A program made the translations under genes and the position numbers. This document shows, in pieces, positions 1,529 through 62,900 of a stretch of DNA of 64,000 nucleotides (its first letter is position 1; each line of letters opens with the position of its first letter). The notes beneath the pieces are model-generated. The model saw only the letters and a program-made list of their open reading frames with translations, was not told the DNA's origin and did not search any database. The stretch comes from Cyanidioschyzon merolae. Taxonomy: Eukaryota. Location of the stretch: the NCBI GenBank assembly GCA_000091205.1, contig AP006498.2; one strand, 5' to 3'.

Positions 1529-4080
1529 GGTGCTCGCAGTCGTGCGCGTTTGACTTTTGTACCGCTGTATTCAGTGCAGTGGACTCTGGAAGTTATACAT
1601 GATCACACCCATTGTGTTTTTATTTGTTTTGCTCGGTAGGTATTCAAGAAAACCGACGTATGCTTTCATGATGGAGAAAGGTTGCAGAATGACTTGATGC
1701 CGACTCTGTTAGTTTAGCGAAGAACGACGGTATCTGTACGAGCCGGCCACTTACGTGCCAGCCGGCGGATCATCCACACTGCTTCTTGGCGCCATCAAAA
1801 GTGCCTTGCACCCAGAACGGCGCTTTGTTTCTGCGAGAATGCCTTTTCATCAGTCCAACGCATTCTATTTGGCCCTTAAGGAATCCGACCAAAGAAACCG
1901 TATAGTATGTGCGGTTTCCATACCATCGATACGAACAGCGATCAGCAGACACTGATGGACAAGGAGAAACACAAGCTTCTAGGCGAGACCGTCGCGCAGG
2001 GACCCATGCACTGTTGTTTTGTGCGAAAACGCGACCGATAATGACAGGAGCGACGGACGCTCGTCTCACTCGATGAGCGTACGTTCGGGAGAACTGGCAG
2101 ATCTGTGTGTGAGTGCTCAAAGGGCTATAGTGCGCTGTTCGGGGCTCATGCCGCGTTAGCCGCTAGCTCTCCGAAAAATCAGACGTACTGGTCACCTAGA
2201 GACGTTTCGGATCGCGAACCTCTCATATCCCTATTATTCTTGTTCTCTGCTCTGGATGGAATATGGAGTTCCAGTTCGTCTTTACGTACGAATTTCGAAT
2301 CGAAAAATGCGTGTCTTCGTGAATTCCGCCGGAGGCGGCGGGGAGAAGCGCCCTCCTTCTTCTCCATTTGGAAAGCGAATATTTTCACAAATTGCCCCAT
2401 AAGCGTGCCCTGCTTTGCAGTGCGTCTCAATTCGAGCTCCAAACTCTCCTAAGTGCAAGTTTTGCTGCGCGCGCGACATCGAACTCGTTGCTTACGGTAA
2501 TAAAAGTATACATACGCATGCCTGCTTGTCGAAAGCAAACCCGCATCCCGGAGTGGCCTCTTCGATGCATCAACCTCGCGTCATCCATCAAGAACGCTTA
2601 CACTTGTCTGCCGCGGGATACCGGCATACGTTTGCGTACGCGCATCCGCGATACCAGCTTCGCGGTTTTAGAGAGCTCTATTGTCGCATCCGTCGTTTCT
2701 CAGTGTAGCATCTCTCCCAGTACAAAGACGATGCGCTGCAGCCTACCATATCATTGTCCGTTAGGGCGTTGTGCAAGAGCACAGCGGAGCTAAGCGGAGT
2801 TTCCGGGTAGAGTCGCGGGCACGCAGCGCGATGCAATGCAAACATATGCACTGGCAAACGCTGTCGTTAGCGACATCGCAGCCGTCGCAGGAGCCACCGT
2901 ATTCATCAGCGGTGCTGCAAAACCCGGGTCATGAAGCATGTACTGAGTCTGTAGCCGGCGTCGAGCGCCGCTCTCGCTGAGACGCGAGCTACGGCAGGGA
3001 AACCTTCCGGCAATGTATCGAATACGGTTCTGAAACGGAGTTGCATGAAACCGAAACATCTTGTCCCAGTAAACCTCCACTGCAGCGCGTGCAAGAACGA
3101 ATAGCGGGCTCTATTTAGGGCTTTCCGCCGGACAACTGGTGCTGCAGCTTGTCCAAGAAAACTGCTGCTCCGGTTGTATCAGGTCGCCACGGCTGGCGGC
3201 AAAGCGTTCGTGCTGAGTGCCACCCTCTGAGCCGGTGCTGCCCATGCGAAAACCCTCGAAGACACTGTTCAGCGTTCTTGAGACCCTTGGAAACAGCCTC
3301 ATCTAACTGGCACGAGCGCAGAGAAGCATCGTCGCGCCGCAGCACTTCTACGTGCTGTGCAGGCTGGCTTGAACGCCAAAACCACAGCACGACCCTATTT
3401 CCAATATTCCAGCAGACATACATAAAACAGACCAAAAATTCCAATGCTCTTCGAATACGTACACCACGCTATGTGAATTTCGCGACTACTCATCATCCAG
3501 TAAAACAACAAGCATAAGCTGTACGTTCTCGCCCTGTCAATAGAGCTGGCGTCTGCAGCTGCTGGTGTGTCCCCAGATACCACGCCTGTCCCAGTGCGCT
3601 TGCATTTGCCCTCGACACCCTTCACTGCCACTCTAAGATCCAACCCGAAACAAATAATATCCTTTCTACAACGTTTGTTCAACCTCTTATCGAGAAAACG
3701 GCTCAAATACTCGACAAACAACGTTTACGCACGCGACTAAACTGACTTTCCTTAACGGTTACCGCAAGGCGCCTGCACCAACACCCGTCGACGCCTGTCT
3801 CTTGTCATTCTATATTCGGTTCTTGTGGCAAGCGAGCACCAAACGCGTTCCTCGAGCGCACTGAAGCGAGTACGATTGCTTTCCCGAGGCAACCAGAGCC
3901 TCAGTTAATAACCACAAGCACACTCCAGACTCGAAGCGCTTTTCAGTACCCGAGTTGCGTGGCGAGCGACCGGCTTCGAGCGCTGTGCAGGCGCTTTTTC
4001 GAGCGGAACGCAGAGCACTGCTGCCGTGAATGCACCGAGCATCGAGGCCGTTGTCTGAATCGCGCTGTCCTTCACCGGCA

Positions 4081-11303: not shown

Positions 11304-12439
11304 GGAGTCCGTTCACACCCAGCGCTGGGTAGCTTAAGTCAACGAAGATTTGAATCACCTTTGCTGCGTGTATTCGAATGCTTATTCACAATGTACAGCT
11401 GGACGTTGAGATCATGATGGTATGCACTGTATCGATCATCGACGAATTGCCGCTAGGATGTATTCTCTGGTAAATAGTGAAAGGAGGTCTACATTCTGCT
11501 TCGGGTCAGGCATACAATAGTACTCAGATGGTTGAGTAACACAGAAAGAATCACGTAGATACGCTCCGTGCCGAAAACCGATTTGCTCGAAGCGCGCCTG
11601 CGGTTAATGGTATAAAAATGATCCGTTCATCATATTACGGAAAGCAAAAGCAACGATCCTAGCAACTACCAGTGTCTCTATTTCTCAATAGCTTGTTCGC
11701 GTTGTCCTGAAAACACTGGTATACAATCGCATAAAAAGTCCTGGTTCACAAACGGCAATCTTCCGCCGAAATCTCAACGACAGCGTCCTTGGAAAGTCAA
11801 TATCGATATGAAGCACAGAGACGACGATTTGTTTTTTCAGTTAATGAGAGCTTCTTCAGACGAAACGGCCGGAGTGCGGATGGGTAGTCGCGGAGCGTGG
11901 CGTCCGTTGTATGCGCTATCGAACTCTTAGAGAACGAGTATATCATCATCGGTCTAGCTGTAGTGGAATCATTTAGCGGCCTCCAATTCGCGTATACAGA
12001 AGGCTCATACAACAGCGTTGACTTCGTCGAATCAATAAAGGTGTTGTCTCTGACGTCTGGCCACGACCTTCTACTAGACAACGTGGTAGTTCACATTTCC
12101 CCTTGCGTCGAGCTTTTGACGATTCTAATTAGGTAGAGCTGCTTTTGACTCCTCCGTTCTCTCCGCGTTTCAACTGCATCGCAGGAATGTCTTCTATCGT
12201 GAAACGAAATGATCGCTCTAGTGGGCCAATCGATGATGCGTTCAGCACACAGTGAAACACCCGGGCACATGACGTTGTTCTTCCGCCAGTCCTTCATCCT
12301 CCGGGAAGGTCCTCGCTTAAGGGTATCAAGCAGCGCGTTCATTTTTTGAAGAAACTAAAAATCCCAGGGATGAGCTGGGGTTTACTCATCAGAAGATCGA
12401 GATGGAGAAAAGCCAGCGAAGCGCTCCGGCGATAGAAGA

Positions 12440-12812
12440 GCACGGGGAGCTGATCGAGCAGCAAATGGCACAGACGGCACAAGTTCGAGGACTACTTGCA
12501 TTGGTGGGTTCAACAACGGCAAGAAACGCATGGAGTTTGTGAACCGAGACTTTAACGCCGCTATCGATATCAGGAGATGTGCGGTGCTGGAGACGAGACC
12601 TCCAGAATAGACAAGAGTGAACTTTGTTGGACAGCCTCCAAAAATTGAACTATATGAGAAATAATTGGAACCAGTAGCTCGTGGCCGGTCGAAAATGGCT
12701 GGGAGGCGTCTGCACATCAGCTGGAGACGCTGTGTCTAGGGCGCGGTTTCTCGCCAATACTGTGCACGGCCAACGGCGACGTTCGACTTCTGAGGCGAGT
12801 TTGGTAGTGGTG
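12440..12812 (+). mobile_element. Solo 3'-terminal fragment (fragment D) of a TnpB/Fanzor-like element. It carries the RuvC-III motif, a C-terminal tail, and the conserved post-stop non-coding tail.
   Basis: It translates to GKKRMEFVNRDFNAAIDIRRCAVLETRPPE...AGRRLHISWRRCV*. The DNA is homologous to the 3' ends of copies A, B and C, including about 80 nt after the stop (gacgttcgacttctgaggcgagtttggtagtggtgg). Confidence 0.5.
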
Positions 12813-24737: not shown

Positions 24738-25012
24738 GACACCCCCAAGTCTTTGACCTCGCTGGTACGAGCGGCTCGAGCCGGTTCAACTGTTCGCCCC
24801 CTAGAGCCCAGACGCCACTAACAGTTCGGCTCCTGGTGGTAAAAGATTGCTTGACTTTGCTGAGCCCCGAACAGCACTGTATCTCCCAACAGCGCAGTAG
24901 ATAGCTCGCATAAGAACGGGTATGTGTCGTTGGAGCGCAAGTGCGTCCAAGGTTTCATTTGGTGTCCGGTTCGCCATCGTCGCACCTGCGCTGCAGTACT
25001 CTGGCGCTTGCA

Positions 25013-25245
25013 GTGCATTTGAAAACGGTACATTGAGCATTGGAGTTGCCCTAGATCAGTGCACTCTTGGGCACAGAGCAGGGACACGCTTCGACTGCGG
25101 CTCGTGTTCCATGTGGATGCAGCGCATTTGAAAACGGTACATTGAACACTGGAGTTGCCCTAGATCAGTGCACTCTTGGGCACAGAGCAGGGACACGCTT
25201 CGACTGCGGCTCGTGTTCCATGTGGATGCAGTGCATTTGAAAACG
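25013..25245 (+). repeat. Tandem repeat, 111-bp unit x about 2.1, intergenic (upstream of the lipoyl synthase gene)
   Basis: The unit gcatttgaaaacggtacattga(g/a)ca(t/c)tggagttgccctagatcagtgcactcttgggcacagagcagggacacgcttcgactgcggctcgtgttccatgtggatgcag starts at 25013 and 25124. A truncated third start is at 25235. Confidence 0.85.
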
Positions 25246-26034
25246 TTTCCAATGTATTCTCGAGCGGCGGAGCTCGTCGTGTTGGGATCGTTCCCAACGG
25301 CTCGGGGCTCGATGCAGTCGTTGGAAAGCGTGACGTTCGTGCACGCGTCCGCACCGAAACTGAAAATAGGGATGACCTAAACGAAAATTGACGCTCTCTC
25401 ATGTAATCCAAATTCGGAGCTGAATTCAAAGACCAGAACCGAATGCTTCTGAACCAGCAGCTACAGGGCATTGGAGGAAACGCACATTCGAGCGACGCAC
25501 AAGAACCCCGGACACAACCCCGTTCGCCGCGATCCACGTATGATCCGTACCCCAGTTCGAACGGATGCCCTATGTGGTACGGCAACGCCGTTCTGTCTCC
25601 GTGACGCAACTGTACCGAAGGTAAAGACGCTATTGCGGATGACTAGGGCAGGCATTAGGTGTGCGATAGAACGCATGAAACGACCAGAAAATCCGAGAAG
25701 AAGTTTCGGTAATGTGACTTGGGAGTAGGGTGTTTGATGGATACTTCAAAGCGCACTGAAAAACAAATAAAAAAGAAAGAAAAGAAAAAGCGCACAGTCG
25801 GAGAACGCTGGCCTAAGTAAACGTCTTGTCAATGAAAAAAGAATCCCGCTCGGTGAGCGCATCAGGGAGATCGGGCAGTCAACTGACAAGACGCGCATGT
25901 CGCCGTTGAAGAGAAAAGCGATCCTGATCAGGTGCGTGTTCTACCGGAACAAGTTGGATTTCCGTTGGAGTTTTACAAAAAAGCAGTTTTTCATTTCATT
26001 TGTGCTTCAAACCTCAAACAAGTCTAGTCCAGAG

Positions 26035-28370
26035 TTTTTTCGCAGTATATAACAAAAGCGTTCGAAGAGCGTTCTTTTTCGAAAAAATAAAAAGGAAAGC
26101 TATGAAAAGCAAGTCGACGATCCTGGAAGCCCAGTTTCGCCGGCTGCCAGAAAAAAAACAGAAAAACAGTGCCAAGTCCAGAAGAAAAGGAAGAGAAGAA
26201 GAACCGAAAGGGGGATACCCTACGTCGAAGGCCGCAAGAAAGGCAACTGCACGACGAGAAGGCGGTGAAAGCCTTTCTTCTTGGACATATCAAGGATCCC
26301 TGCAGGGAAAAGTTGCGAGACGCTATCGGAAAACTTGTCGACTCGTACTCCAAGAGTATTGTCAAGGCGTCGTCAGGACCGATGCATTTGGCCAGGGAGA
26401 CGTATCGCGACGTGACGCACATGGAAACAGTCGAGATGCCGGACGAGTCGTTCGACATGACCCTTATTCGATACCTGATGCTTGGTACAGAAAAAGCGCA
26501 GAAGGAAAATGAGCTTGTGCATGCCCTCAACGAAAACTTCGCGGAATTCTGCTTCGAGGGTACCAGAGACGGGGGTGACTCGGATATTTACGACTATGGG
26601 GCGATGAAGTACCTCACGAATCTGAAGAACCGTTTGACAACGAACCTCGAACGTTTCATGACACGCGCAGTGTTTGCACTCTACCCGGGCCAATCTCGCA
26701 ATGGAAAATGGACGATTATCAGTGGCATCACGAGAGATCGCAAGCGTGAAGATGAGGTCGAATTTGTCGATAAGAAGGCATCTAATGAGAGCACAAATGA
26801 AGCTTCTGTAATCCGTGCGGTTATACAAGAGCACCGCGCAGTTTTGGGCTGGCGAATCCAGCAGACAAGCTATCAGAGTTGAAAAAAGATACGGAGACAT
26901 ACTATCGCCTCATCCTGCGCGATTTCGTGTTTTTGGATCGAGAATTCGAACGCAAGGCGGAGATGAAGCTGAGCGAGGAAAAAATGAAGAGTGGGAGAGA
27001 CGGAAGGCTTTCCTAATGGGGAAGCGCTTCAACATGGTTCCAGTGTGCAACATCAAGTCACATTTTGTGACTATCGACTCCAGCGTCCTTCATGGCATCA
27101 TGAGGGAGATCAGTCCGGAGTTCAATGTTAGCAGGGAGGACTTCAACGGTGAAAACCGGGAGACGTACTGGAAGAATATCTTCGACTTCAAGCGTCTCAA
27201 AGCCAGCAAGCAAAAGGTATTCACTGAGATGATCGAAACCAATGGAGTAGACATGTGTATACACTATCGGCGGTTGAAGAGAGATCGTCCAGTCCTGCCC
27301 TCAGCGAAGCATGAAGATGAGAAGGGGGCGGATCCTGCGACGCAGGAAGTGCAGGATAACGACTTCGTCGCTGGCGCGGACTCCGGAAACACAAATATCA
27401 TAACCATCGCAGCACCGAAGCTTGCGGAAGATGGTGCTGACGGCAACTTACGTCAGAAAGACATGCGTCCTTTAAGGTTCTCGAGAGCGAGATACTATTG
27501 AGAATCTGGAATCATGAATGCGAGGAAGAAAACTGAGAAGTGGAATTCAGGAATGAAGGATCACCTGGAAGCTTTGAGCGAGGTGACGAGCCGAGGAGCA
27601 GACTTTGAAGCTTTTCGGGAGTTCATGGATGTTCGCGTTGCTCATTGGGATGCGCTGTAGGAGGAGTATACAAAGCCCCGGTCGCCTCGTTTGCGAATGA
27701 ATTCGTATTGTGGGAAGCAGCGGGCGTTCGCGAATTTTTCAATGAGTTGAGTGCCCTGAAGGAGGATGAAAATCAGAGGCTCGTAGTAGCGTACGGAGCA
27801 GGGCACTGGAAGACCCAAAAAGGGTGTACACCAGCTCCAACGACGAGAGCGTACAAGGAGTGCGCAAGGCGTCTCGTTACGATACCTGTAGATGAGTTCC
27901 GGACATCGTATACACACCATGAACTGGGTTGTACACTTCAGAGGGTGGAGATGGAAAAGTGCCAGCGGAGCCCCGAGGCTATAAAAAAGTACGGACCGCT
28001 CACAGAAGAGCAAATGGAAAGGAGAGCGAATGTTCGAGGGCCTGCTTGCATCAGTAAGTACAACCAGTGATGGTAAGAACCGGAAAGAGTTTGTGAACCG
28101 AGACTTTAACGCCGCTATGAATATAAGGAGATGTGCGGTGCTGGAGAACAGACCTCCAGAGTAGACAAGAGGGTATCTTGTTGGACAATCACTCAAGGTG
28201 GAACCATATGAGAAAAAGATGGAAGCAGTAGTAGGTGGCCGGTCCAAAAAGACTGGGAGGCGTCTGCACCTCGGTTGGAGACGTCTTGTCTAGGGCGGCT
28301 CGGTCGCCACTACTGTACACCGCTGCCGTCGTTCGACTTAGAACGGCGTTTGTTGTTGGTGTGTGTGTAA
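26035..28370 (+). mobile_element. TnpB/Fanzor-like (OMEGA-family RuvC nuclease) transposon relic, copy A
   Basis: The left boundary is defined by where homology to copy B begins (ttttttcgcagtata). The right boundary is where homology to copies B, C and D stops, just after gttggtgtgtgtg. It contains RuvC-I-like GADSGNTNIITIAAP, RuvC-II-like IPVDEFRTSYTHHELGC...C, and RuvC-III NRDFNAAMNIRRCAVLE. Confidence 0.6.
26102..28291 (+). pseudogene. Fanzor/TnpB-like nuclease gene of copy A, disrupted
   Basis: A K/R-rich NLS-like N-terminus comes first (MKSKS...KSRRKGREEE). The reading frame then changes at least 4 times (for example a +/-2 indel in the run gaggaaaaaatgaag). There are two in-frame stops relative to copy B (YY*ESG versus YYLESG, and DAL*EEY versus DALREEY). 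Confidence 0.6.
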
Positions 28371-28417
28371 TCGGTTGTTTGAAAGGCACAGCAGTCGCTG
28401 AGCACTGCTGGAATCCG

Positions 28418-46414: not shown

Positions 46415-48549
46415 TACTTCTCGAACAGAGCTTGGTTGTGTCACCTTCGATTTTGCAGTGAACACTGCGAGAAATCTGCACAATTGATGTGACTTTTCAG
46501 CATTGTCTTGAGAGATGGTGATGCTCCTGTGACTTTGGAGCGTACGAGCAACCCGGGAGGAACGGTGCGCACCGGATTATTCGCGATGCCGAGCAAAGTT
46601 TTCTTGGATGGCTGAACGGAGAGAACGTTGGGAATCGCAGATCATTTCACGATTTTCCAGACGGCAGCGTCCATCGCTCTCCGAAACGTGCAGCAACTCA
46701 CGACAAGTTGTCCTCGGAGTAACGCATTCCTGGGTGGTGCTGTCGAGTACAGAGTCGGTGGACACTGCCCGCAGCTGTTATGTTGGCGGGGGCGCTGCAT
46801 GGTTTGGCATATAGTAACGCATACGACTGGATCGGTTTCGCAGGATGCCTGGGACCACGAATTCCTTCCTTCAGAGTGAACGTCGCACGAAAATGAACAT
46901 ACGCTATCAAGCCGGTGCCGCTTGTGCACGGATTGGCATATTTGGATTGCGAGTTCCTGGTCTAAGCAGCCTGCGGACAGGCAGCTTAGGCGATGCTAGG
47001 TGGCATTCAGTCCTTGAGGGAGCTCGCTGCAGTCTCAGCAGGGATTGCTCTGGAAGGGAAACACGTTTCCGTCTTCCGATACTGACGACAGTAGCTGCCA
47101 TCCCTGCATGCTGTATCGTTGCTCCTGGGAGCATGGATATTGTATTCGATTTTTATGGACAGTTTCGTGTCTTCGGCTCCTTGTCCAAGTGCGCGTTCGC
47201 TTTGTACGGCATGTGTATTTTCAGAAGCATTTCACATGGATCAGGCCTCGTCTCAGCACATAGCAGTCGTATCCGAGCTGACTCGATTAGTAGGGTGCAA
47301 AGACTGGGCCATGCATAGATGCCATCCAAGAAACAGCCACCACTTTCGTAACTAAAGACATCATCCGAGGACAAAACGAATGACCAACACGACGTGGAGC
47401 TCGTTTTCGCGCTTGATCCAGGTCTTGACCATGTCGCACGATGTGCACGACTCTCGCAATCTGACGAGTACTCGACGTTGTTTCTGAAACTCGCTATTCA
47501 TAGACACCATTTCATTTCCCACGGGCGCAGTCGAGAATCGAGCGCCATTGTCGGCCTACAAGCAGATCGAGATGAAAGGAACCATGGCCGGGCAGCTGCG
47601 ACGCGGGAAAGTATCCTGTCGCAGAGCAGTCGCGACATCGGACGAGGCAATACGAGGACTGCGTATACGCTCTCAATAGTCGTCGCCGTAACCTGCGCCC
47701 TGGTGCGTCAGAAGCGGCAATAAATGGTTGCGTCGCTCACGGAGCCCCAGTAATAGACAACGTTTTGGAGGGAAGTCCTGTTGTCGAACCAGCTGCGGCG
47801 GCCGCAGAGGAACTGCAGCACCCTTTGGGGGTTCGTTGCGTTTCTTTGACCAGAGGTTGAAACCTCGTTGTCCTTCCTTGGAGTGCTTCTGGCCCATACC
47901 GGAGTCCAGAAATTTTTAGATTTTTTTACGACACACAGCGTCGAAAGCGTGAAACTGAACAAAGAACGCAGTGGAAGCGAACGCTGCCGCAAAGCCCTGT
48001 GCACAACGCATCCGCGCAACAGAAAATCGTTGCATCGAACGGCTGCAAATGTTCGCCGCGCACGCACCGGCGAGATTGCGCACGTGCGCGCAAAAGCAGC
48101 TGTAAGAACCTAGACATAACGTACATGGTATCCGACGCCGCATGCAGTGCTGCACGCTTCGCGTGCGAGCACCGCGGAAGCGTGCGCAGCGATACGGCGC
48201 GATGGATCCCATGTGCATTATGTCAGTGGCACAAAAAAGTCCTACGCCCAAGGGGCTATAGACGTGCCCGCACTCGCTGACGCCTCCACACCTTTTTTCA
48301 CCGGCCGACTGCTATCGGTCCCAGCTTCTCCTTGTGGACGTCGAGCGTCAGAGGCTGCCCAACAACGTTGAATCGCGTCAACTCTTTGGGTCTCGTGTTC
48401 AGCACTGCACATCTCTTGATGTTGGTGGCAGCCCTCAAGTCTGGATTCACAAACTCCATGCGTTTCTTGCTGCTGCTTGTCATCACCAATGCAAGGAGTC
48501 TGTAAACTCACGGCCTCTAGGCATGTACGGTCCCGTCATCTTCCGGTGG

Positions 48550-48760: not shown

Positions 48761-51124
48761 GAAAAAGCATTTGATGACACGCATCCAGAAATGGAACACA
48801 ATTGACATTAAAGCCTACAGGTAACCCACAGCCATCTAACACTGACATAGCAACAACAGACCAACTGGAACGCCGCGATCGATATGAACCACAGGCACGA
48901 GGTTTTGTATACCAATCGGTGTATCTTCCTGAAGACGAAATATTCGGCGCGTGTAGGGATGTTCGCAGTAAGGGCCTCGCTGTATGTACGATTGAACCTG
49001 AGGCGAGCGGGAATGTCATAATCTGTTTCAGCTGCCGTCGAAGCCTTTGGCTGCCTCAGTTTCGCTCGTAGAGAAGACTTGCAAAAAAGCACCCACTTTG
49101 TCGAATCATTGAAGATATTTCCCCTGGCATCTGGCGGTGACTTTCTTCATGACAACATGGAATTTCACCGTTCACCTTGCCTTCGAGGTTCTGTTGATTC
49201 TGTCGAGCTGTAGAACTGTTTCTTATTCCTTCGTAGTCTGTGTCGTTGAACCGCATCGAGGAAATTTTTTATCGCTACAAGTAATCATTGGTCCACTGGA
49301 TGAATTGTTGAAGCTTTCACCATGGAGACAACGGAACGAATATTGTTTTTTCTTCCGCAAGTCCTGCTTTCTTCGGGGAGGTCCTTACGTAATGGAATCT
49401 TGAGATGTGGTCATTTTCGAAAATACGATGCCCTAGGGAAAGTTTTGGGAAAACAAGTCGGGTATCCTGCAGGGCCGTTCATAGCCGGGTTCAATAAATA
49501 AAACGAAAAATACTCTTCCCGCCGACCATCGAGGGAAGAAGAGCACAAAACGAAGAAGATGAAGAAGAGAGAGACAGCCAGGACAAGGTGTCTGCCCGGC
49601 TGGACGATGACGAAACTTTAGTGTCACAGAGGGCAAGAGTTTGAGGACGCCTAGCATTTCTATGTTCGAGAAGCGGCGAGAGTCGCATGGAGTTTGCGGT
49701 CCGAACTTCAACGACCTCGTGGATATCAGACGACGCATGGTGCAGAAGAGGATACCCGACGAGCTGAGGTGATCTAACATTGTGGCGCAGCCTCTCAAGC
49801 CCGATTTCTGGTGGGATAATCAGAACCGAGACCAGACAGATGGTCAGGAAAGGCAGAGAGGCGTCCATGAGTGGATGTATGTAAATACTCTATGTTCTTA
49901 GAGGATTTGTTTAGGAGATCATATGGACTAGAAAAATAGAACACTCGCCTTGATCCCGTGTTGATTTTGTACGGAATTTTTGGTAAAAGTGCAGCCTCTC
50001 TTCAGGCCTCCTGCAGGAACAGATCCTGTACAGGGTGACCTGAAACCACGTGTGGTGGAGGTCAGGAACCGTCAAGCTGTCAATGTACAGAACTGGAAGC
50101 AATCCGGGCGCACTATGAACTTGTTTGGCAAGAATAAGCGCTGCTGCCTGGGCTGAGGATATATATGAGAAGGAAAAATTTTGCAGTCGAAACTGAGAAT
50201 TTATAGAACTTTCGTCAGTTCGGAAGCAACAGCTGTAAACGTACCCACCATAAAATGCACTTTTCCTCAATGATGCTTCGTTTCAAGTAGCCACATACGC
50301 TGACTTCTTCATCCATACGAAGGATACACATAGGCACCAGAAAGAACGCTTCAGAATACGCGGATCCGCAAGGTCGTGCCTATGATTCGTAGATCATATT
50401 GTGCACGCTTGCGGATTTCGAACTATTTTGACAGCAATCTTGGCTCATGCAGTATGGCCATGTTAAGAAAGTATTCACGGTATACTCTCATGGAAGACGC
50501 TCATTTTTACATATAGACAGGCTACTCGGTCTCCTGTATCTGCATCTGGTCGGTAAGCAGGTCACGGCTTCTAGGGTTCATCGTAAAGAGAACCTGCGGA
50601 CATCAGGAACCGCCCTGTCAAAGCAACGCCAGTACCAAAAGAATCTCACAAAGTGCTCAGAGAGGACATGGCAATGGGTTCCTCGCAACATGCAAACACC
50701 CTACCGTGTATACTTGCGATGGCGCGAAGTCGACTTGGGCCCGCAAGCGCTCGATGCTCGCGGTCGCCACGCTGCGCAAGCGCGGATCCGTGAGAACCCT
50801 GGCGGGTGGGATAGGCAAACCGGGTCCTGTGCCAAAATGACCGAATGTGTGTACTTCCAGGAGCAAAACGGGAACGGTACAGTATTTGGTAGAAATGTTC
50901 CGTAGCGTCAGCGAGCATCAACGTGTCTGGTATATTCCATATTGTCCAAAAATGAAAAGAGCAACCGGCAATAGCACGGCGGTACAAGACGCTGGAAGAA
51001 TCGGTTTTGGCGGGAAATCAGTAGGTCGTAGCCGAGATCCTTGCGCAGCTGCTGCCGCCAAGGCGCTGTACACCCTCATGTGTGTATACGACTGCTAGGC
51101 TCTCGAACGATTTCTCGAAACGAC

Positions 51125-54034
51125 ATGGCACATTCCACGGACAGTTTTGCCTCAAGCAGCCCGCGAGACGACAGGGGTGAGGATCCAGCAGGTGACAACG
51201 TGCCGCTCTCGAGTGTGCCAGCGACCCCTGCGGGAGCAACACCGCGCCCTCCGTTTGCTGAACGTGGTATGTTTTCGCCGCCCTCATCCCGTGGTGCCTT
51301 GAGTCCAGACCCGTCAGAGCAGACAGGCGTCTCTCAGTTTGGCCAGGCGCGATACGGAAGGGCTGTAGGCGGGAGCGCCTCGTTCGCAGCGGAGGGTGAG
51401 CCAGGAATCGGAGCGCGGTCGGGCTCGAGCTGCCCGCCAACCTCACCGCACTTCCAACGGTTCAGCACTGTTGGACGCCGGGAACTGAGCCGTTCCTTTT
51501 TGGGGCTTCCACTCACGCCGCGGAGCAGCGCGACCGGCTCTCCGAACATTGATCGTGGCCTGGGCTCTCAAACAGTCGGCGGCGGCGCCGATCCAACGCG
51601 CACTACAAGCACTGACTCCATTCCTGTGCGGGTTCTCTGGGGAACAGACTTATCTGTGGAAGAGGTTTACGCGAAGTTGTTGAGCTTCTTAAAGGGATTC
51701 CATCCGCTGCGATTATCGGATGAAAATAGCCTTTCGAGAGGCGACGACTCCTCGACAACAGCGACCCCAGCGCCGCTCTACTTGAAGCTCCTGGAGGAGC
51801 TCCACGAAACTGATTCCCACACGCTTAACGTCAGCATGAAACACGTCCAAGAATATGATGCAGTCTTGCACGAAAAACTTGTACGGTACCCGTCTGACAT
51901 GATCAGCCTCTTTGATATGGCAGCAAACCAAATATACCAGCAAATGTTCATGAGCGATAGCAGTGGAGTGATCGGACACATTCAGGTCAGAGTTTACGAC
52001 ATTGGCTCTGCACAATCCGTGCGCCAGCTTGAGCCGTGCCATCTGGACTCTCTTGTCGCGATTCGGGGAATGGTAGTACGGACGAGCAGCCTCATTCCCG
52101 ATCTGGCGGATGCATTCTACCGCTGCATGAACTGTCTACACACAACGGTGGTCCCTATTCGACACGGGCGCGTCCAAGAACCGAGTGCATGTTCTCGTTG
52201 TGGCCTGAAATCTTCCTATCAGTTGATTCATAACCGATGCTGCTTTACGGACAAGCAGGTCATTCGTCTCCAGGAGTCACCAGAGAGCGTACCGCAAGGG
52301 GAGACACCTGCATCAATTTCACTTGTGCTGTACGAGGATATGGTGGACACCATGAAACCCGGCGATCGCGTGGAAGTCACGGGAATATATCGAGCTATGC
52401 CTGTGCGGGTTCATCCACGGATGCGGAACGTACGGTCTGTCTTCCGCACATACCTGGATGTGGTGCATGTGAAGCACACGGATGCTCGGCGCGTCATGGA
52501 CGTACCAGAACCCGGTGACGTCGATGCTCTGCCGCTCGCAGAAGAAGTCGCCGGTACGACATCGACCGCAATGGTCCCGCTAATCGACCTGGGCGGTGCA
52601 GGTTCTGCTCAAATGCCCGCCGAACCGCGTGAAGTTGCAGCAGATGCACTGGAGCCGGCGCCGCTGTCGGATGCACCGTTGCGCGGGATGCGCGACTGGG
52701 AGCCTCGAATTCGTGAACTTGCCCGTGATCCCCGTGTGTATGAGCGTCTAGCCGCGTCTATAGCGCCATCCATTTGGGGTATGGACGACGTGAAGAAAGG
52801 GGTCCTGTGCCAATTGCTTGGCGGGACACGGAAAGACTTTGTCGCTGCTGGAGGAACCCGTTTCCGCTCTGAAATTAACGTGCTGATCGTAGGCGATCCT
52901 GGAGTCTCCAAATCGCAGCTACTCTCCTTCGTACACCGCATCTCACCTCGAGGAATCTATACGTCTGGACGGGGGAGCTCGGCGGTTGGTCTCACTGCCT
53001 ATGTGACCAAAGATCCCGAAACGCACGATACCGTTTTAGAATCTGGTGCTCTAGTCCTTTCTGACCGCGGAATTTGCTGCATTGACGAGTTTGACAAGAT
53101 GAGCGAGCAGTCCCGCACAATTTTACATGAGGCAATGGAGCAGCAGACAATATCGATCGCCAAAGCCGGCATCATCGCCACCTTGAATGCCCGAACTTCG
53201 GTACTTGCAGCAGCGAATCCAATTGACTCGTGCTACAATCCACGCTTGTCAGTGATCGAAAACATTCAGATGCCGCCAACGCTCCTCTCTCGCTTTGATC
53301 TCGTCTATCTAGTGCTCGATAAGCCATCCGCAGACGATGATCGGCGCCTCGCGCGCCACATTGTCTCCCTCTTTAGCGAGCATGAGGAGAGCGCAGCAGG
53401 GAACGCGTTTCATGCTTCGGAAGATTTGCCCCTGGTGGAATTGCCGTTGCTGGCGGCCTACATCTCATATGCACGCGAGAATGTCCATCCCGTCTTGTCG
53501 GATGATGCAAGTGATACGCTGATATCGGGCTACATGGAGATGCGGCGGATGGGCGCTGCGTATGCCGCCCACGGGATTCCCAAGACCATTACAGCGACGC
53601 CGCGGCAGCTTGAGTCGCTGATCCGTCTCTCCGAGGCGCACGCGAAAGTTCGCTTATCGCCCGTTGTCGAGAGAGCCGATGTCGAAGAGGCTCTCCGTCT
53701 AGTACGGATCGCCACCCAGCAGGCTGCCACAGATCCGCTGACTGGTCGCATCGATTTGGATCTGCTGCAGACGGGGCATAGCGCGGCATGGCGTCAACGC
53801 GTCAACGAACTTGCGCGGGCAATCTGGAATATTCTTCAGGAACGTGAGTCCTCTATCGTGCTTCGCAAGCAGGCGATTCTCCATCTCCTTCGGCAACAAG
53901 CCGCTCAGGTGGGTACTACCTCTGCGGACGAGACCGTGCGTGAAGATGAGTTCGAGGAGGCTCTTCATCTGCTGCAGAACGAACAAAAGATACGGCTTGT
54001 CCAGCACGGGTCCGCTGTTGCACGTTGCTTCTGA
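51125..54034 (+). CDS. MCM4: DNA replication licensing factor MCM4
   Basis: The ORF is open from 51041, and the first ATG is at 51125. The N-terminal domain is Ser/Thr-Pro-rich (CDK/DDK sites), as in MCM4. C4 zinc finger CMNC...CSRC. Walker A GDPGVSKSQLL, Walker B CIDEFDKM, the arginine finger SRFDLVYL, and the IDEFDKM...AMEQQTISIAKAGI MCM box. Confidence 0.8.
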   Translation: MAHSTDSFASSSPRDDRGEDPAGDNVPLSSVPATPAGATPRPPFAERGMFSPPSSRGALSPDPSEQTGVSQFGQARYGRAVGGSASFAAEGEPGIGARSGSSCPPTSPHFQRFSTVGRRELSRSFLGLPLTPRSSATGSPNIDRGLGSQTVGGGADPTRTTSTDSIPVRVLWGTDLSVEEVYAKLLSFLKGFHPLRLSDENSLSRGDDSSTTATPAPLYLKLLEELHETDSHTLNVSMKHVQEYDAVLHEKLVRYPSDMISLFDMAANQIYQQMFMSDSSGVIGHIQVRVYDIGSAQSVRQLEPCHLDSLVAIRGMVVRTSSLIPDLADAFYRCMNCLHTTVVPIRHGRVQEPSACSRCGLKSSYQLIHNRCCFTDKQVIRLQESPESVPQGETPASISLVLYEDMVDTMKPGDRVEVTGIYRAMPVRVHPRMRNVRSVFRTYLDVVHVKHTDARRVMDVPEPGDVDALPLAEEVAGTTSTAMVPLIDLGGAGSAQMPAEPREVAADALEPAPLSDAPLRGMRDWEPRIRELARDPRVYERLAASIAPSIWGMDDVKKGVLCQLLGGTRKDFVAAGGTRFRSEINVLIVGDPGVSKSQLLSFVHRISPRGIYTSGRGSSAVGLTAYVTKDPETHDTVLESGALVLSDRGICCIDEFDKMSEQSRTILHEAMEQQTISIAKAGIIATLNARTSVLAAANPIDSCYNPRLSVIENIQMPPTLLSRFDLVYLVLDKPSADDDRRLARHIVSLFSEHEESAAGNAFHASEDLPLVELPLLAAYISYARENVHPVLSDDASDTLISGYMEMRRMGAAYAAHGIPKTITATPRQLESLIRLSEAHAKVRLSPVVERADVEEALRLVRIATQQAATDPLTGRIDLDLLQTGHSAAWRQRVNELARAIWNILQERESSIVLRKQAILHLLRQQAAQVGTTSADETVREDEFEEALHLLQNEQKIRLVQHGSAVARCF

Positions 54035-54211
54035 TTTTTTGTGCACTGGAAGCATCCTGGAATACTTCATAAAGTCTCCGAGTATAATAAATCTCTGTCT
54101 CTGTAATTTGCGTGCGGGAAAAATGCACACACACCAACAACGCCGCTCTGAAGTCGAACGACGTCGGGCGTGTACAGTAGTAGCGGTGAACGCGCTCTAG
54201 GCTAGACATCC

Positions 54212-56777
54212 TCAACTGACGTGCAGACGCCTCCCAGTCTTTTTGGACCGGCCACCCACTACTGCCTCTATTATTTTCTCATATAGTTCGACTTTGAGAG
54301 GTTGTCCAACAAAGTCCTCTCGTGTCAGCTCTGGAGTCCTCGTCTCCAGCACCGCACATCTCCTGATATTGATAGCGGCATTAAAGTCTCGGTTCACAAA
54401 ATCGATACGTTTCTTGCCATCACTGGTTGTACATGCTGATGCAACTAGTCCTCGAACTTTCGCTCTCCTTTTCATTTGCTCTTCCGTCAGTGGTCCATAC
54501 TTTATTATATCTTCAGGGCTCCTCTAGCACTTTTGCATCTCCACTCTCTGAAGTGTACAACCCAGCTCATGGTGTGTATACGATGTTCGAAACTCATCTA
54601 CAGGTATTGTAACAAAACGCTGTGCACACACTCCTTGTACGTTCTTGTCGTTGGAGCTGGCGTAGTCCCTTTTTGTATCTTCCAGCGCCCTGCTCCGTAC
54701 GCTACCACGAGCCTTCGAGTCTTGTCCTCTTTGAGCGCACTCAAATGATTGAAAAGGTTGGAAAACGCCCGCTGCTTCCCACCGTATCGATTCATACGCA
54801 AACGAGCCCATCGGGGCTTGGTATACTCCTCCCGCAGCGCATCCCAATGAGCAACGCGATCATCCATGAATTTCCGAAAAGCCTGAAAGTCCGCTCCTCG
54901 GCTAGTCACCTCGCTCAAAGCTTCCAGGTGATCCTTTCTTCCTGCATTCCATGTTTCGATTTTCTTCCTCGCATTCATGGTTCCTGATTCCAGGTAGTAC
55001 TTCGCTCTCGAGAATCTCAAAAGACGCATGTCTTTCTGACGTAAGTTACCGTCAGTGCCATCTTCAGCACGCTTCGGTGCTGCGATGGTGATGATATTCG
55101 TATTCCCAGGGTCCACGCCAACGACAAGGTCGTTATCCTGCACTTTCTGCATCTCAAGACCCGCCTCCTTCTTTTCTTCATCCTTCACCGCGCCAATGAC
55201 GAGGTCGTGATCCTGCACCTCCTGCATCGCAGGACCCGCCTCCTTCTTTTCTTCATCCTTCACCGCGCCAATGACGAGGTCGTTATCCTGCACCTCCTGC
55301 ATCGCAGGACCCGCCTCCTTCTTTTCTTCATCCTTCACCGCGCCAATGACGAGGTCGTTATCCTGCACCTCCTGCATCGCAGGACCCGCCTTCTTCTTTT
55401 CTTCATCCTTCACCGCCCTAACGACAAAGTCTTCATCCTCCATCTCCTCCGTCTCAGGAACCGCCTCCTTTTCATCGTCATCCTTCGCCGCGTCAACCAT
55501 AAAGTCGTTATCCTGCAGTTTCTGCGTCGCAGCATCCGCCTCTTTGTTTTCTGCATCCTTCGTCACGGGCGCAGCCGAGTGAGGGACTGGCCGATCTTTC
55601 TTCAACCGCCGGTAGTGTACGCATAAGGCTACTCCATCGGTTTTGATCAACCCAGTGAATACCTTTTGTTCGCTGACTTTGACAGGTTTGAAATCGAAGA
55701 TACTCCTCCAGTACGTCACCCGGTTCTCGCCGGTGAAATCCTCCGTGCTAACTTTGAACTCCGGACTGATCTCCTCCATGATGCCATAAAGGACGCTGGG
55801 GTCGATACTAACAAAATGTGACTTGATGTTGCACAACGGAACGACGTTGAAGCGCTTCCCCTTTAGGACAGCCTTCCTTTTCTCCCACTCTAAATTTTCC
55901 CTCTTCAGCCTCATCTCCGCTTTGCGTTCGAGTTCTCGGTCCAGAAACACGAAATACAGCAGAATAAGGCGATAGCATCTTTCCTTATCTTTTTTTCAAC
56001 TCTGATATCTTGTCTGCTGGATTCGCCAGCCCCAAGATTGCACGGTGCGCTTCTATAACCGCACGGATGACGGAATCCTCATTTGTGCTCCTGCGTGAGG
56101 CCTTCTTGTTGACAAATTCGACCTCATCTTCACGCTTGCGATCTTTCGTGATGCCATTGATAATCGCCCATATCCCCTTGCAAAAGATGCCCGGATACAG
56201 CGCAAACACGGCACGTCTCATGAAACGTTCGAGGTCCACTGTCAAATGGTTCTGCAGATTCGTGAGATGCTTCATCGCTCCGCATGTGTAGATATCCCGG
56301 TCACCCTTGTTTCGAGTGCCCTCGAAACTGTAAAAGGGTTGTTTCTCGTGGAAGGCATGTACTAGCTCATTTTCCTTTTGCGTTTCATCTGTACCAAGCA
56401 TCAGGTGATGAGTAAAGACTTATCGAAAAACCCGTCAGGGTACCTCGACCGTTTCCATGTGCGTAACTTCGTGGTACATCTCCCTCGCCAAATGCATTAG
56501 TCCTGACGACGCCTTGACAATACTCTTGGAGTACGAGCCGACACGTTTTTCGATAATGTCTCGCAACTTTCCCCTGTAGGGATCCTTGATATATCCAAGA
56601 AGACAGGTTTTCACCACAACCTCGTAGTGCGGTCGTCTTTCTTGCCGCCTTCTACGTAGGGCCTCCCATTTTTGCTTCTTTTTCTCTTCCTTTTCTTATG
56701 AACTCGGCACCGTCTTTTGTTTTTTTTTTAGCAACCGCCGACCCTGGACCTCCAGGATCGTGGACTTGCTTTTTCAT
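54212..56777 (-). pseudogene. Fanzor/TnpB-like nuclease gene of copy B, disrupted
   Basis: Relative to copy A there are in-frame stops (MGGPT*; VEVP*RVFR*), a +1 insertion in a poly-A tract (ttgaaaaaaagata versus ttgaaaaaagata in A), and frame changes near 54540 and 54480. It also contains an expanded 75-bp (25-aa) tandem repeat (DNDLVIGAVKDEEKKEAGPAMQEVQ x about 4.5) that is absent from copy A. Confidence 0.6.
55130..55470 (-). repeat. Tandem repeat, 75-bp unit x about 4.5, inside the copy-B Fanzor-like ORF
   Basis: The unit gccaatgacgaggtcgttatcctgcacctcctgcatcgcaggacccgcctccttcttttcttcatccttcaccgc is repeated on the plus strand. Copy A has a single unit at the same position. Confidence 0.8.
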
Positions 56778-60632: not shown

Positions 60633-62900
60633 GCACCCACAGCCAAACGCCGTTCTAAAGCGGAACGACGTCGGCATAGTGCAGTAGCGGCGACCGGTCC
60701 GCCCTAGACGAAACGTCTCCAACTGAAGTGCAGACGCCTCCCAGTCTTTTTGGACCGGACACCTATTACTGCTTCCAATTGTTTCTCATATAGTTCGACT
60801 TTGAGAGGTTCTCTTAGAGAGTTCTCTTTTGTCCATTCTGGAGGACTTTTCTCTAGTACCGCACATCTACTTTTATTGATAGCGGCGTTAAAGTCTCGGT
60901 TCAAAAACTCTTTCCGGTTCTTGCCGTTGGTGGTACTTATGCAAGTAGCCCTCGAACTATCGCTTTCCTTTCCGTTTGCTCTTCTGTCAGCGGTCTGTAG
61001 TTTTCACATCCTCAGGGCTCCACTGGCACTTTTCAATCTCCATTCTCTGAAGTGTACAACCCAGTTCATGGTGTGTATACGATGTTCGGAACTCATCTAC
61101 AGGTATCGTAACGAAACGCCTTGCGCACCCCTTGTACACCCTAGTCGTTGGAGCTGGTGTACACCCTTTTTGGGTCTTCCAGCGCCATGCTCCGTATGCT
61201 AATACGAGCCACTGACGTTCATTCTCCTTCAAGGCGCTCAACTGATTGAAGAAATTCGCAAATGCATGCTGCCTCCCACCGCGTAGATTCATTTGCAAAC
61301 GAGTCTACCGTGGCTTTGAGTATTCCTTGCACAGCGCATCCCAGTGTGCAACGCGAACTTCTTTGAATATCCAAAAAACTAGAGAGTCCGCTCTTGGGCA
61401 TGTCACCTCGCTCAAAGTTTCCGGGTTATCCTTAACTGTTGCACTCCACGGGTCGATGTCCATCCTCGCACTCAATCTCCCGGATTCCCGATACCATCTC
61501 GCTCTCGAGAACACCAACAAAAACAGGTCTTTCTGAGGCATGTTGCCGTCAGTACCACCTTCCGCACGCCTGGGAGCAGCGATGCTGATGATATTCGTAT
61601 TCAAGGGGTTAAGGCCGCAGAGAAAGACGATTTCGTGGGCATCATACGTTCCATCGCCCGTCTTCTTGTGTACGCGCTTCGGCAAGTGAGATAACGAAGA
61701 CGGGATAGGACGACGTGCCTTCAACCCCTGAGAGTGTAGGTTTATGTATACCACATCGTAATCGATGGCCCCCGTGAGTACCTTCCTTTGGCCGGTTTGG
61801 GACGCTTGAAATCGAAGATATTCTACCAGGGTGTCCCGGTCTTCGCCGGTGATCTCTTTGTAGTTTACATCGAGCTCTGGACCGATCTATTTCGTGAAGG
61901 CGTAAAGGACTCTAGAGTCGATATTCACAGAATATGAATTGAACTCGCATAACTGAACCACAATGAATCGCATCTGGAGAAGGCCTTCAATGTCGGTACT
62001 CCCACCCGTCATTTTTTCTGCACTCTGCTCCATGTCGGCCTTGCGTGCGTGTTCTCTGTCCGAAAAAATGAGGTGTGGCAAGATGAGGGAGTAAATTCTC
62101 TCTTCGTCTTCTTTGATCATATCTGACAGTTTTCACTTGGGATGACATGACCCAAGACCGAACGATGTTTTAGAATAGTGGCGCGGATAACGAAAGCAAG
62201 ATTCTTTCTCCTGTTTGATGTCCTCTTGTCGACGATTCTGATCTCCTGTTCATGCTGGCGATCGCTCTTCTTGCAATCGATGATTGCCAGTATCCCTTTG
62301 CGAAACGGGCCCGGGTACAGCGCAAAGACGACGCGTTTCATGAAACAATCGAGGTTTACGATCTTATGGTTCCTCACTTTCGTAAGGCACCTCATTGCCC
62401 TGTATTCGAAAAATGTCGGCGTCACCCCCTCGTTCAGCATCGCTGACGAGGTATTTGGCGTAATTTTTGAGGAAGGCATGCACTCGCTCATTTATCCCCG
62501 ATGTTTTCCCATTAAAAACAATCAGGTGGTTGATGTAAGTCTATTGTGAAAAATCTTCCGGAAACATCACCTTCGCGGTGTGCGTCACGTCCCGATGCAG
62601 CTCGCTCTCCAAACGCCGCAGTCTTCAAGAAAAGTTAAAAATATACATGGCGTACGAACCGACACTGTTTCTGATAACGTCTCGCAACATTGAGTGGTAA
62701 GGATCATTGATATGTAGGAAAAGATAGGATTCCACCACCATCTCGTCGTACAGACGTCACTATTGAAGCCTTCAATGTAAGACCTCCCCATGTTGCATCT
62801 TCTTTTTTTCCTGATCCTCTTCGATCGGCACTAAGTCACGTTTCATTCTGAAATACACAATACCGGCCACCCCAAACCCACTCCCCCAATTACATTAGTC
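60633..62900 (-). mobile_element. TnpB/Fanzor-like transposon relic, copy C (most degenerate). The 5' boundary is approximate.
   Basis: RuvC-III NRDFNAAINKSRCAVLE. The zinc-finger/RuvC-II block VDEFRTSYTHHELGCTLQRMEIEKC. A RuvC-I remnant GLNPLNTNIISIAAP, in which the Asp is lost. An N-terminal remnant RAVFALYPGPFRKG. The 3' tail is conserved (gtcgttccgctttagaacggcgtttggctgtgggtg). There are many frame breaks. Confidence 0.5.

Follow-up and report, generated by a model that had tools for sequence, protein, structure and literature searches.

The window, i.e., the whole 64-kb stretch of contig AP006498.2 analyzed here, contains four stretches with a common 3' end that are detected by blastn. 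These are copies A, B and C and fragment D of a transposon whose open reading frame (ORF) encodes a nuclease of the Fanzor1 type, as judged from profile matches. The ORF is followed by a conserved tail. This tail is a selected, strand-specific, two-hairpin module at the right end of the element, and it most likely encodes the scaffold of an omega RNA (ωRNA), the guide RNA of such nucleases. The copies and a fifth, older fragment are located as follows:

25843–28367, + strand: copy A (blastn)
26102–28293, + strand: decayed Fanzor1 ORF of copy A, with the ATG at 26102 and the stop codon TAG at 28291–28293; frameshifts and in-frame stops (three-frame translation)
57047–54124, - strand: copy B (blastn)
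About 62820–60632, - strand: copy C (blastn)
12370–12794 by blastn, and to 12811 with the tail module, + strand: fragment D, a 5'-truncated 3' piece of ~425 nucleotides (nt)
48276–48468, - strand: fragment E, an old, diverged remnant of the last ~190 nt of a Fanzor ORF, 67% identical to copy A

Identity between the copies across the 3' end is 70–87%. Fragment E has no recognisable tail left. The protein rebuilt from the copies has 276 relatives, all of them unnamed metagenome proteins, and an alignment of 19 of these, used as query, yielded at least 80 related loci on JGI metagenome contigs. Conservation was measured on 71 non-identical 3' ends taken from the window and 80 metagenome loci.

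The nuclease gene

The nuclease gene is a Fanzor1 gene according to profile comparisons. A family profile search of 1.84 billion representatives finds 1393 relatives, many of which have 600–700 residues. A profile built from 77 relatives matches the solved Fanzor1 chain 9cf0 (Parasitella parasitica PpFz1) with E = 1.4e-20, chain 8gkh (Spizellomyces punctatus SpuFz1) with E = 1.7e-13 and chain 9cer (Guillardia theta GtFz1) with E = 6.9e-7. The alignments to these chains span the DPG, DEFRT and NRD-NAA motifs. The profile of the window family in turn matches the 77-relative profile with an hhalign probability of 100% (E = 2e-106). The link to Fanzor1 is visible only with the deeper profile, since Pfam and PDB searches with the single rebuilt protein or with a shallow family profile gave no useful match. 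As regards the TNB (zinc-ribbon) domain that lies between RuvC-II and RuvC-III in Fanzor1 proteins, Pfam family PF07282 is matched by 44 of the 77 relatives, with a best E of 5.4e-6; the window family itself shows a weak match to PF07282 (E = 2.5 over 11 residues). Several family members (P0013, P0015–P0017, P0020 and others) carry a precomputed Pfam match to PF26935.1, which was not reproduced by our own Pfam search.

A majority consensus built from 72 copies reads through as one ORF without interruption and has the catalytic residues D/E/D. The motifs of its split RuvC domain are GADPGNTN, VDEFRTS and NRDFNAAINI, which align with IDPNKRD, LDEYKTS and NRDMLS of SpuFz1. They can still be read in copy A as GADSGNTN, IPVDEFRTS and NRDFNAAMNI, and the readable protein contains the motifs VGVDPGNTNIITIAAP, IPVDEFRTSYTHH and NRDFNAAINIRRCA. 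CxxC pairs are not evident in the 72-copy consensus. An AlphaFold2 model made with the shallow family alignment has a mean predicted local distance difference test value of 38.7, a poor result attributable to the lack of depth in the alignment. Copy B contains an internal expansion just before RuvC-I, where a 75-nt tandem repeat is present six times (positions 55113–55562, - strand). The repeat encodes a 25-residue acidic and lysine-rich unit (..DNDLVIGAVKDEEKKEAGPAMQEVQ..), and its copy number among family members ranges from 1 to ~6.

The conserved tail

An alignment of the four window copies shows that identity persists past the stop codon TAG and vanishes within a few bases of one column. 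In the 71 3' ends, the majority-base frequency is 0.85–0.9 over the last 150 coding nt, 0.68–0.89 per 10-nt block at positions 28290–28349, 0.57 at positions 28350–28359 and 0.35 or less, i.e., background, from position 28360. The conserved tail extends ~68–70 nt past the stop codon and ends at approximately position 28362 in copy A. Sequences past this point are unrelated between copies. The first 20 flank positions show no base preference among 51 copies, and the flanks of A–D have no match elsewhere. A preliminary description of this DNA had reported that conservation continues beyond the stop codon in all four 3' ends and stops at the same point in every copy, marking the right end of the element. 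The alignments and the unrelated flanks agree with both statements, but the tail is shorter than the ~80 nt given there. Two motifs quoted in that description, ctactgtacac and gtcgttcgactt, are exact in copies A and B and differ by 1–3 bases in C and D.

As the tail is part of a repeated element, conservation past the stop codon is to be expected. What exceeds chance is the pattern within the tail, where conservation is bimodal: near-invariant blocks (0.92–1.0) alternate with co-varying positions. Secondary structure was modeled from single-copy folds and a covariance model built on 19 copies. This model detects 88 tails in 574 kb, four of them in the window. The structural features of copy A, termed H1, H2 and H3, and the corresponding modules of the other copies are as follows:

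28257–28287, + strand: H1, a helix of 9 base pairs (bp) within the last 12 codons; GAGGCGUCU (28257–28265) pairs with AGACGUCUU (28279–28287)
28291–28312, + strand: H2, UAG (stop) plus GGCGGC paired with GUCGCC plus (A) plus CUA, a candidate equivalent of stem loop 1 (SL1) of Fanzor1 ωRNAs (folds and covariance model)
28309–28319, + strand: near-invariant motif ACUACUGUACA, with a majority frequency of 0.87–0.94 per position in 72 copies
28317–28362, + strand: H3, a long terminal hairpin, a candidate equivalent of stem loop 2 (SL2) (folds, covariation and arm-swap test)
28363–28385, + strand: flank of copy A, with no similarity to any other copy; it would be the guide under the ωRNA model
54126–54235, - strand: H1-H2-H3 module of copy B, stop codon TAG at 54199–54197, right end at ~54126; covariance-model match of 89.8 bits, full length
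60634–60742, - strand: H1-H2-H3 module of copy C, stop codon TAG at 60706–60704, right end at ~60634; covariance-model match of 104.9 bits
12701–12811, + strand: H1-H2-H3 module of fragment D, stop codon TAG at 12737–12739; covariance-model match of 59.6 bits

Metagenome loci L042 and L029, where similarity to the family is lost partway into H1, and L074, where the tail has diverged, are uninformative.

The order in the folded tail is 3 nt, H2, a 5-nt linker and H3, which closes at the right end. H2 consists of a 6-bp core, GGCGGN/NNCGCC, and a 3-nt extension in which UAG pairs with CUA, and the stop codon is thus a part of the H2 stem. The outer GGCG/CGCC pairs are 91–100% conserved, and the inner pair alternates between GC, CG and AU. 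The nearly invariant single-stranded sequence ACUACUGUAC follows H2, with ACUGUAC as the unpaired linker between H2 and H3. No complementary partner of the linker motif was found in the last 900 nt of the element. H3 has a median length of 18 bp across copies. Its 3' arm stops where the similarity between copies stops, and therefore the end of H3 is the right end of the element.

H1 extends a stem proposed in the preliminary description, gcgtct...agacg(t/c), which is present as described and represents the core of the 9-bp helix. Approximately 85% of the cells in H1 are paired and the ratio of G·U to A·C is 142:16, but variation consists almost only of one-sided wobble changes, with no significant covariation. 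Pairing in H1 is inseparable from coding constraint. An alternative AGACG/CGTCT hairpin across the stop codon is conserved as well as H1 is and also lacks covariation; it was rejected. Synonymous sites were analyzed over the last 45 codons, where there is no clear rise in conservation at third positions. The earlier proposal that the scaffold overlaps the 3' end of the ORF is therefore not clearly supported.

A consensus fold by RNAalifold on a MAFFT alignment contains only the four invariant GGCG/CGCC pairs. The fold is this sparse because two subfamilies are out of register in H3, and for this reason the covariance model and alignment-free tests were used. Compared with dinucleotide shuffles, folding of the tail has a mean z-score of -1.77; the values for flank and coding sequence are -0.28 and +0.36, respectively. 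The arms of H3 co-vary. In an alignment-free comparison, the H3 arms of the same copy pair with -22.2 kcal/mol and chimeric arms from different copies with -18.9 kcal/mol, a difference of 3.3 kcal/mol that was reached in none of 2000 permutations. A difference of this type is not produced by neutral decay of an ancestral palindrome. The ratio of G·U to A·C in H3 is 239:41. The sense strand folds more stably than the antisense strand by 6.0 kcal/mol, which is true in 94% of the copies, and 3.4 kcal/mol of this advantage is beyond that expected from base composition (p = 2e-10). The tail region has no tRNA match.

The proposed ωRNA scaffold and other readings of the tail

In S. punctatus an RNA of 88–90 nt is produced from the ~80 nt that separate the stop codon of the Fanzor gene from the 3' inverted repeat, and it consists of a 75-nt scaffold and a variable extension of 14–15 nt (PMC10432273). 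Fanzor1 ωRNAs are 75–150 nt in length and SL1 always has seven base pairs; in SpuFz1 and PpFz1 only one further stem loop, SL2, is present before the guide (PMC11423790). When the published SpuFz1 and PpFz1 sequences are folded, a leader is followed by SL1, ~6 nt of linker, SL2, which closes at the end of the scaffold, and the guide. The tail resembles these RNAs in size and in its two-hairpin layout, and judged by position, size and layout the best reading is that it encodes the ωRNA scaffold of this Fanzor1-only transposon family, with a probability of approximately 0.6. The preliminary description had also proposed an ωRNA. The element type and the region are as it proposed, but the structural support comes from H2 and H3, which were absent from it.

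By analogy with the known systems, the RNA would derive from the coding strand, with a start of its own or by cleavage from the 3' end of the mRNA, and would begin near the stop codon. H2 would be an SL1-like stem held by the RuvC/TNB surface of the protein. It would be followed by the short single-stranded linker and by H3 as an SL2-like stem that closes at the last base of the element. The RNA would then extend ~15–20 nt into the flank, and this extension would be the guide for DNA cleavage dependent on a target-adjacent motif (TAM). All of this, from transcription and processing to binding by the protein and the guide role of the flank, is inferred, as would be any activity at present.

The SpuFz1 element (Saito et al. 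2023, PMC10432273; 8GKH, 9CEU–9CEZ) is similar in that it has a single Fanzor1 ORF and many copies, and its ωRNA has two stem loops, the second of which closes at the scaffold end, with a variable flank directly past the right end. In the present family, by contrast, H3 has ~18 bp and is GC-rich, and H2 includes the stop codon. The SL1 loop motif of the published SpuFz1 and PpFz1 sequences (UUGUCG/UUAUCG) is absent from this tail. PpFz1 (9CF0–9CF3, PMC11423790) is the best-scoring solved relative of the protein family. Its minimal ωRNA of 75 nt has SL1, one further stem and the guide, a layout as found here, but the PpFz1 and SpuFz1 ωRNAs have no sequence similarity to this tail. PpFz1 also carries an FRI domain that binds cyclophilin (PMC11423790).

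A number of results weigh against the ωRNA reading. Frameshifts and in-frame stops are present in every window copy when translated in three frames, so that all four are pseudogenes, and there is no intact gene in the window or in the 80 metagenome loci; S. punctatus, by contrast, has 19 full-length genes. Any ωRNA encoded in the window would thus be a relic. The SpuFz1 element has 30-nt inverted repeats, and no convincing terminal inverted repeats were found here. SL2 of PpFz1 has only 4 bp, compared with ~18 bp in H3. The tail has no match in Rfam, which carries little weight as Rfam may hold no Fanzor ωRNA family. On average, the tail is conserved to no greater degree than third codon positions (~0.84 and 0.838, respectively). 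The high pair counts were obtained with an alignment fitted to the covariance model, which is biased towards the structure of that model: 82.7% of cells form pairs compared with 40–56% for slid partners, 27 of 37 pairs have two-sided changes compared with 17.6±1.9 in shuffles (0/500), and 134 cells are changed on both sides compared with 54.5 in shuffles. In the unfitted MAFFT alignment the excess of two-sided pairs is marginal (12 compared with 7.9; 4/500), without a significant covariation score. Several compensated differences lie between the two subfamilies and may represent few events. Finally, a terminal hairpin is what a transposase or replication signal is expected to look like.

This last point is the basis for a different reading, in which the tail is only a cis-acting right-end signal, i.e., a terminal hairpin in single-stranded DNA or in an RNA intermediate that would show a mobilising enzyme where copying begins or ends, with no guide-RNA role. 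H3 is situated at the very end of the element, and a strand-specific structure that tolerates G·T pairs would also suit a hairpin in top-strand single-stranded DNA. Fragments are strongly 5'-truncated with the 3' end kept (76 of 101 carry the tail), and target-site duplications and terminal inverted repeats are lacking, all of which fits such a signal. It does not explain H2 and the invariant linker, which are ordered and spaced as in Fanzor1 ωRNAs. There is also no transposase, Rep or reverse transcriptase (RT) gene within the element, decay of the palindrome at the candidate left end is uncompensated, and the 3' terminus is not CTRR. A right-end signal as the only role of the tail is unlikely. 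Right end and ωRNA scaffold overlap in IS200/IS605 elements and in SpuFz1, however, so a right-end role is compatible with the ωRNA reading and does not exclude it; the same hairpin may also be the recognition signal of the right end.

The IS200/IS605 elements with TnpB (e.g., ISDra2) provide the other comparison. In these elements the scaffold of the ωRNA (reRNA) covers part of the nuclease gene at its 3' end as well as the transposon right end and stops at the element boundary, and the flank is the guide, the layout proposed here. These elements are prokaryotic and their ωRNA overlaps the ORF extensively, whereas no clear sign of an overlap was found in the present family. They encode a Y1 TnpA and have hairpins at both ends. 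Neither is found here; between the start of the core shared by all subfamilies and the right end, there is one long ORF only and no Y1 (HUH) TnpA. IS200/IS605 elements lack target-site duplications (PMC10711439), as does the element described here.

It is much less probable that the tail is an ordinary element of the 3' untranslated region, with a role in the stability of the Fanzor mRNA, in forming its 3' end or in terminating translation. The tail does lie on the same strand and begins at the stop codon, which is paired in H2, and in copy A the inner H3 hairpin together with TTTGTTGTTG scores as terminator-like. The host, however, is judged to be a eukaryote, where terminators of the hairpin-plus-U type are not the rule. 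This assignment comes from the neighboring ORF at positions 51041–54034 (+ strand), which encodes MCM4 and has eukaryotic proteins as best matches, with 51–55% identity; among the matches listed, identity to any named eukaryote (Balamuthia, plants, fungi, red algae) is not above ~55%. Long uninterrupted host ORFs suggest an intron-poor genome of a lineage that lacks closely related sequenced genomes, and a PI3/PI4-kinase gene adjoins a related copy. In addition, the inner stem is followed by just TTT in the family consensus, the outer stem of H3, which co-varies, includes the U-rich stretch and reaches the last base of the element, and an isolated tail without the ORF persists in one old locus.

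Slightly less probable still is a tail without function, conserved through recent amplification of the repeat and with hairpins inherited from one ancestral palindrome: the 70–87% identity of the copies over the 3' end, all of them dead, the conservation equal to that of third codon positions and the marginal unfitted covariation would fit, but neutral decay predicts that own arms pair no better than chimeric arms (they are 3.3 kcal/mol better, 0/2000) and that G·U and A·C are equally frequent (239:41 is found), and it accounts neither for the preference for the sense strand beyond composition nor for blocks of 0.92–1.0 conservation next to co-varying positions.

The left side and the spread of the element

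The features that bear on the left side and on isolated tails are the following:

25843–25860, + strand: start of the core common to all subfamilies, ..ATCC followed at the boundary by the palindrome CGCTCGGTGAGCGC, a candidate left end (copy comparison)
L011 1233–1342, L016 369–481 and L059 1786–1884: isolated H1-H2-H3 tails without ORF, adjoining a host gene similar to short-chain dehydrogenases, directly upstream of a full element

Upstream of the core start there are at least four unrelated sequence classes among the copies in the window and in L001–L078. In four of five upstream classes, the last bases ahead of the core are ATCG, ATTG or ATCA, a count that represents only ~5 independent junctions. 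In one class this ATCG is part of a separate repeat, which points to a target motif similar to a TAM. Changes in the palindrome at the core start are not compensated. Walking farther upstream reveals ever more shared segments, truncation points and unrelated repeats. One of the upstream classes is an independent repeat of ~290 nt that abuts copy A (positions 25557–25845, ending in ..TGTCAATGAAAAAAGAATC); it is also found as a solitary repeat, in either orientation, in about 20 of the loci fetched. Also upstream of copy A is a ~109-nt tandem duplication (25009–25136 and 25118–25245, a 128-nt self-match with 96.9% identity).

An inventory of fragments from the window and L002–L081 shows the tail in 76 of 101, with 5' starts at scattered points throughout the element. 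Of the fragments that do not lie at a locus edge, few are without the 3' end, and in several of these the model still detects a diverged or partial tail. Target-site duplications were not found: the longest shared word has a mean of 4.5 compared with 4.1±0.4 for shuffled sequences and is always below 8 nt. In one sub-lineage (L039, L040, L049 and L080), the C-terminal half of the gene is partially duplicated in head-to-head inverted orientation, so that reference positions 2300–2910 are inverted and followed by 2163–3302, e.g., L040 21–628 (-) and 664–1803 (+). L056 has a shorter inverted piece.

Two known modes of transposition were considered and rejected. A Helitron is not supported in that the CTRR/T pattern is absent from the element end and the first flank bases, and the inner hairpin is followed by 12 nt that form the co-varying outer stem of H3. 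Copying as in non-long-terminal-repeat retroposons agrees with the 5' truncation, but not with the lack of duplications, of an A-rich or repeat tail and of an RT in the element. The isolated tails of L011, L016 and L059 were also considered as ORF-less ghost elements, which are present in S. punctatus; this was rejected as their first boundary is an artefact of the query start, and no independent ghost element is confirmed here. L059 and L011 are homologous over ~1.35 kb that includes the host gene, with 82% identity, and L016, cut by the contig start, has the same upstream sequence. The three therefore appear to represent one old locus and not three independent elements.

The bias towards 5' truncation is unlike that of cut-and-paste leftovers, and for this reason copying anchored at the right end is put forward, although it is a doubtful proposal. 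Copying would proceed from the tail hairpin leftwards, often with an early stop or a template switch. It might take place by a one-ended process similar to rolling-circle replication, or by strand invasion during repair of a break made by Fanzor. Such copying would account for the retained 3' module with scattered 5' ends, the lack of duplications and inverted repeats, and the presence of at least four 5' classes on one core. If it is true, the tail would have two roles, as scaffold of the guide RNA and as the site where copying begins.

The tail is an expected feature of a known system, with the position, size and layout that the work on SpuFz1 and PpFz1 predicts. The more interesting loose end is how elements that carry only this ORF spread as 5'-truncated copies without target-site duplications; to our knowledge, the movement of Fanzor1-only elements is poorly understood. 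If the ωRNA reading is true, the family would represent one more Fanzor1 lineage, with a scaffold that can be read straight from the genome copies. The compact scaffold candidate of ~70 nt and the consensus protein, which can be rebuilt, would then be useful for cataloguing the diversity of Fanzor systems, with the overall picture unchanged.

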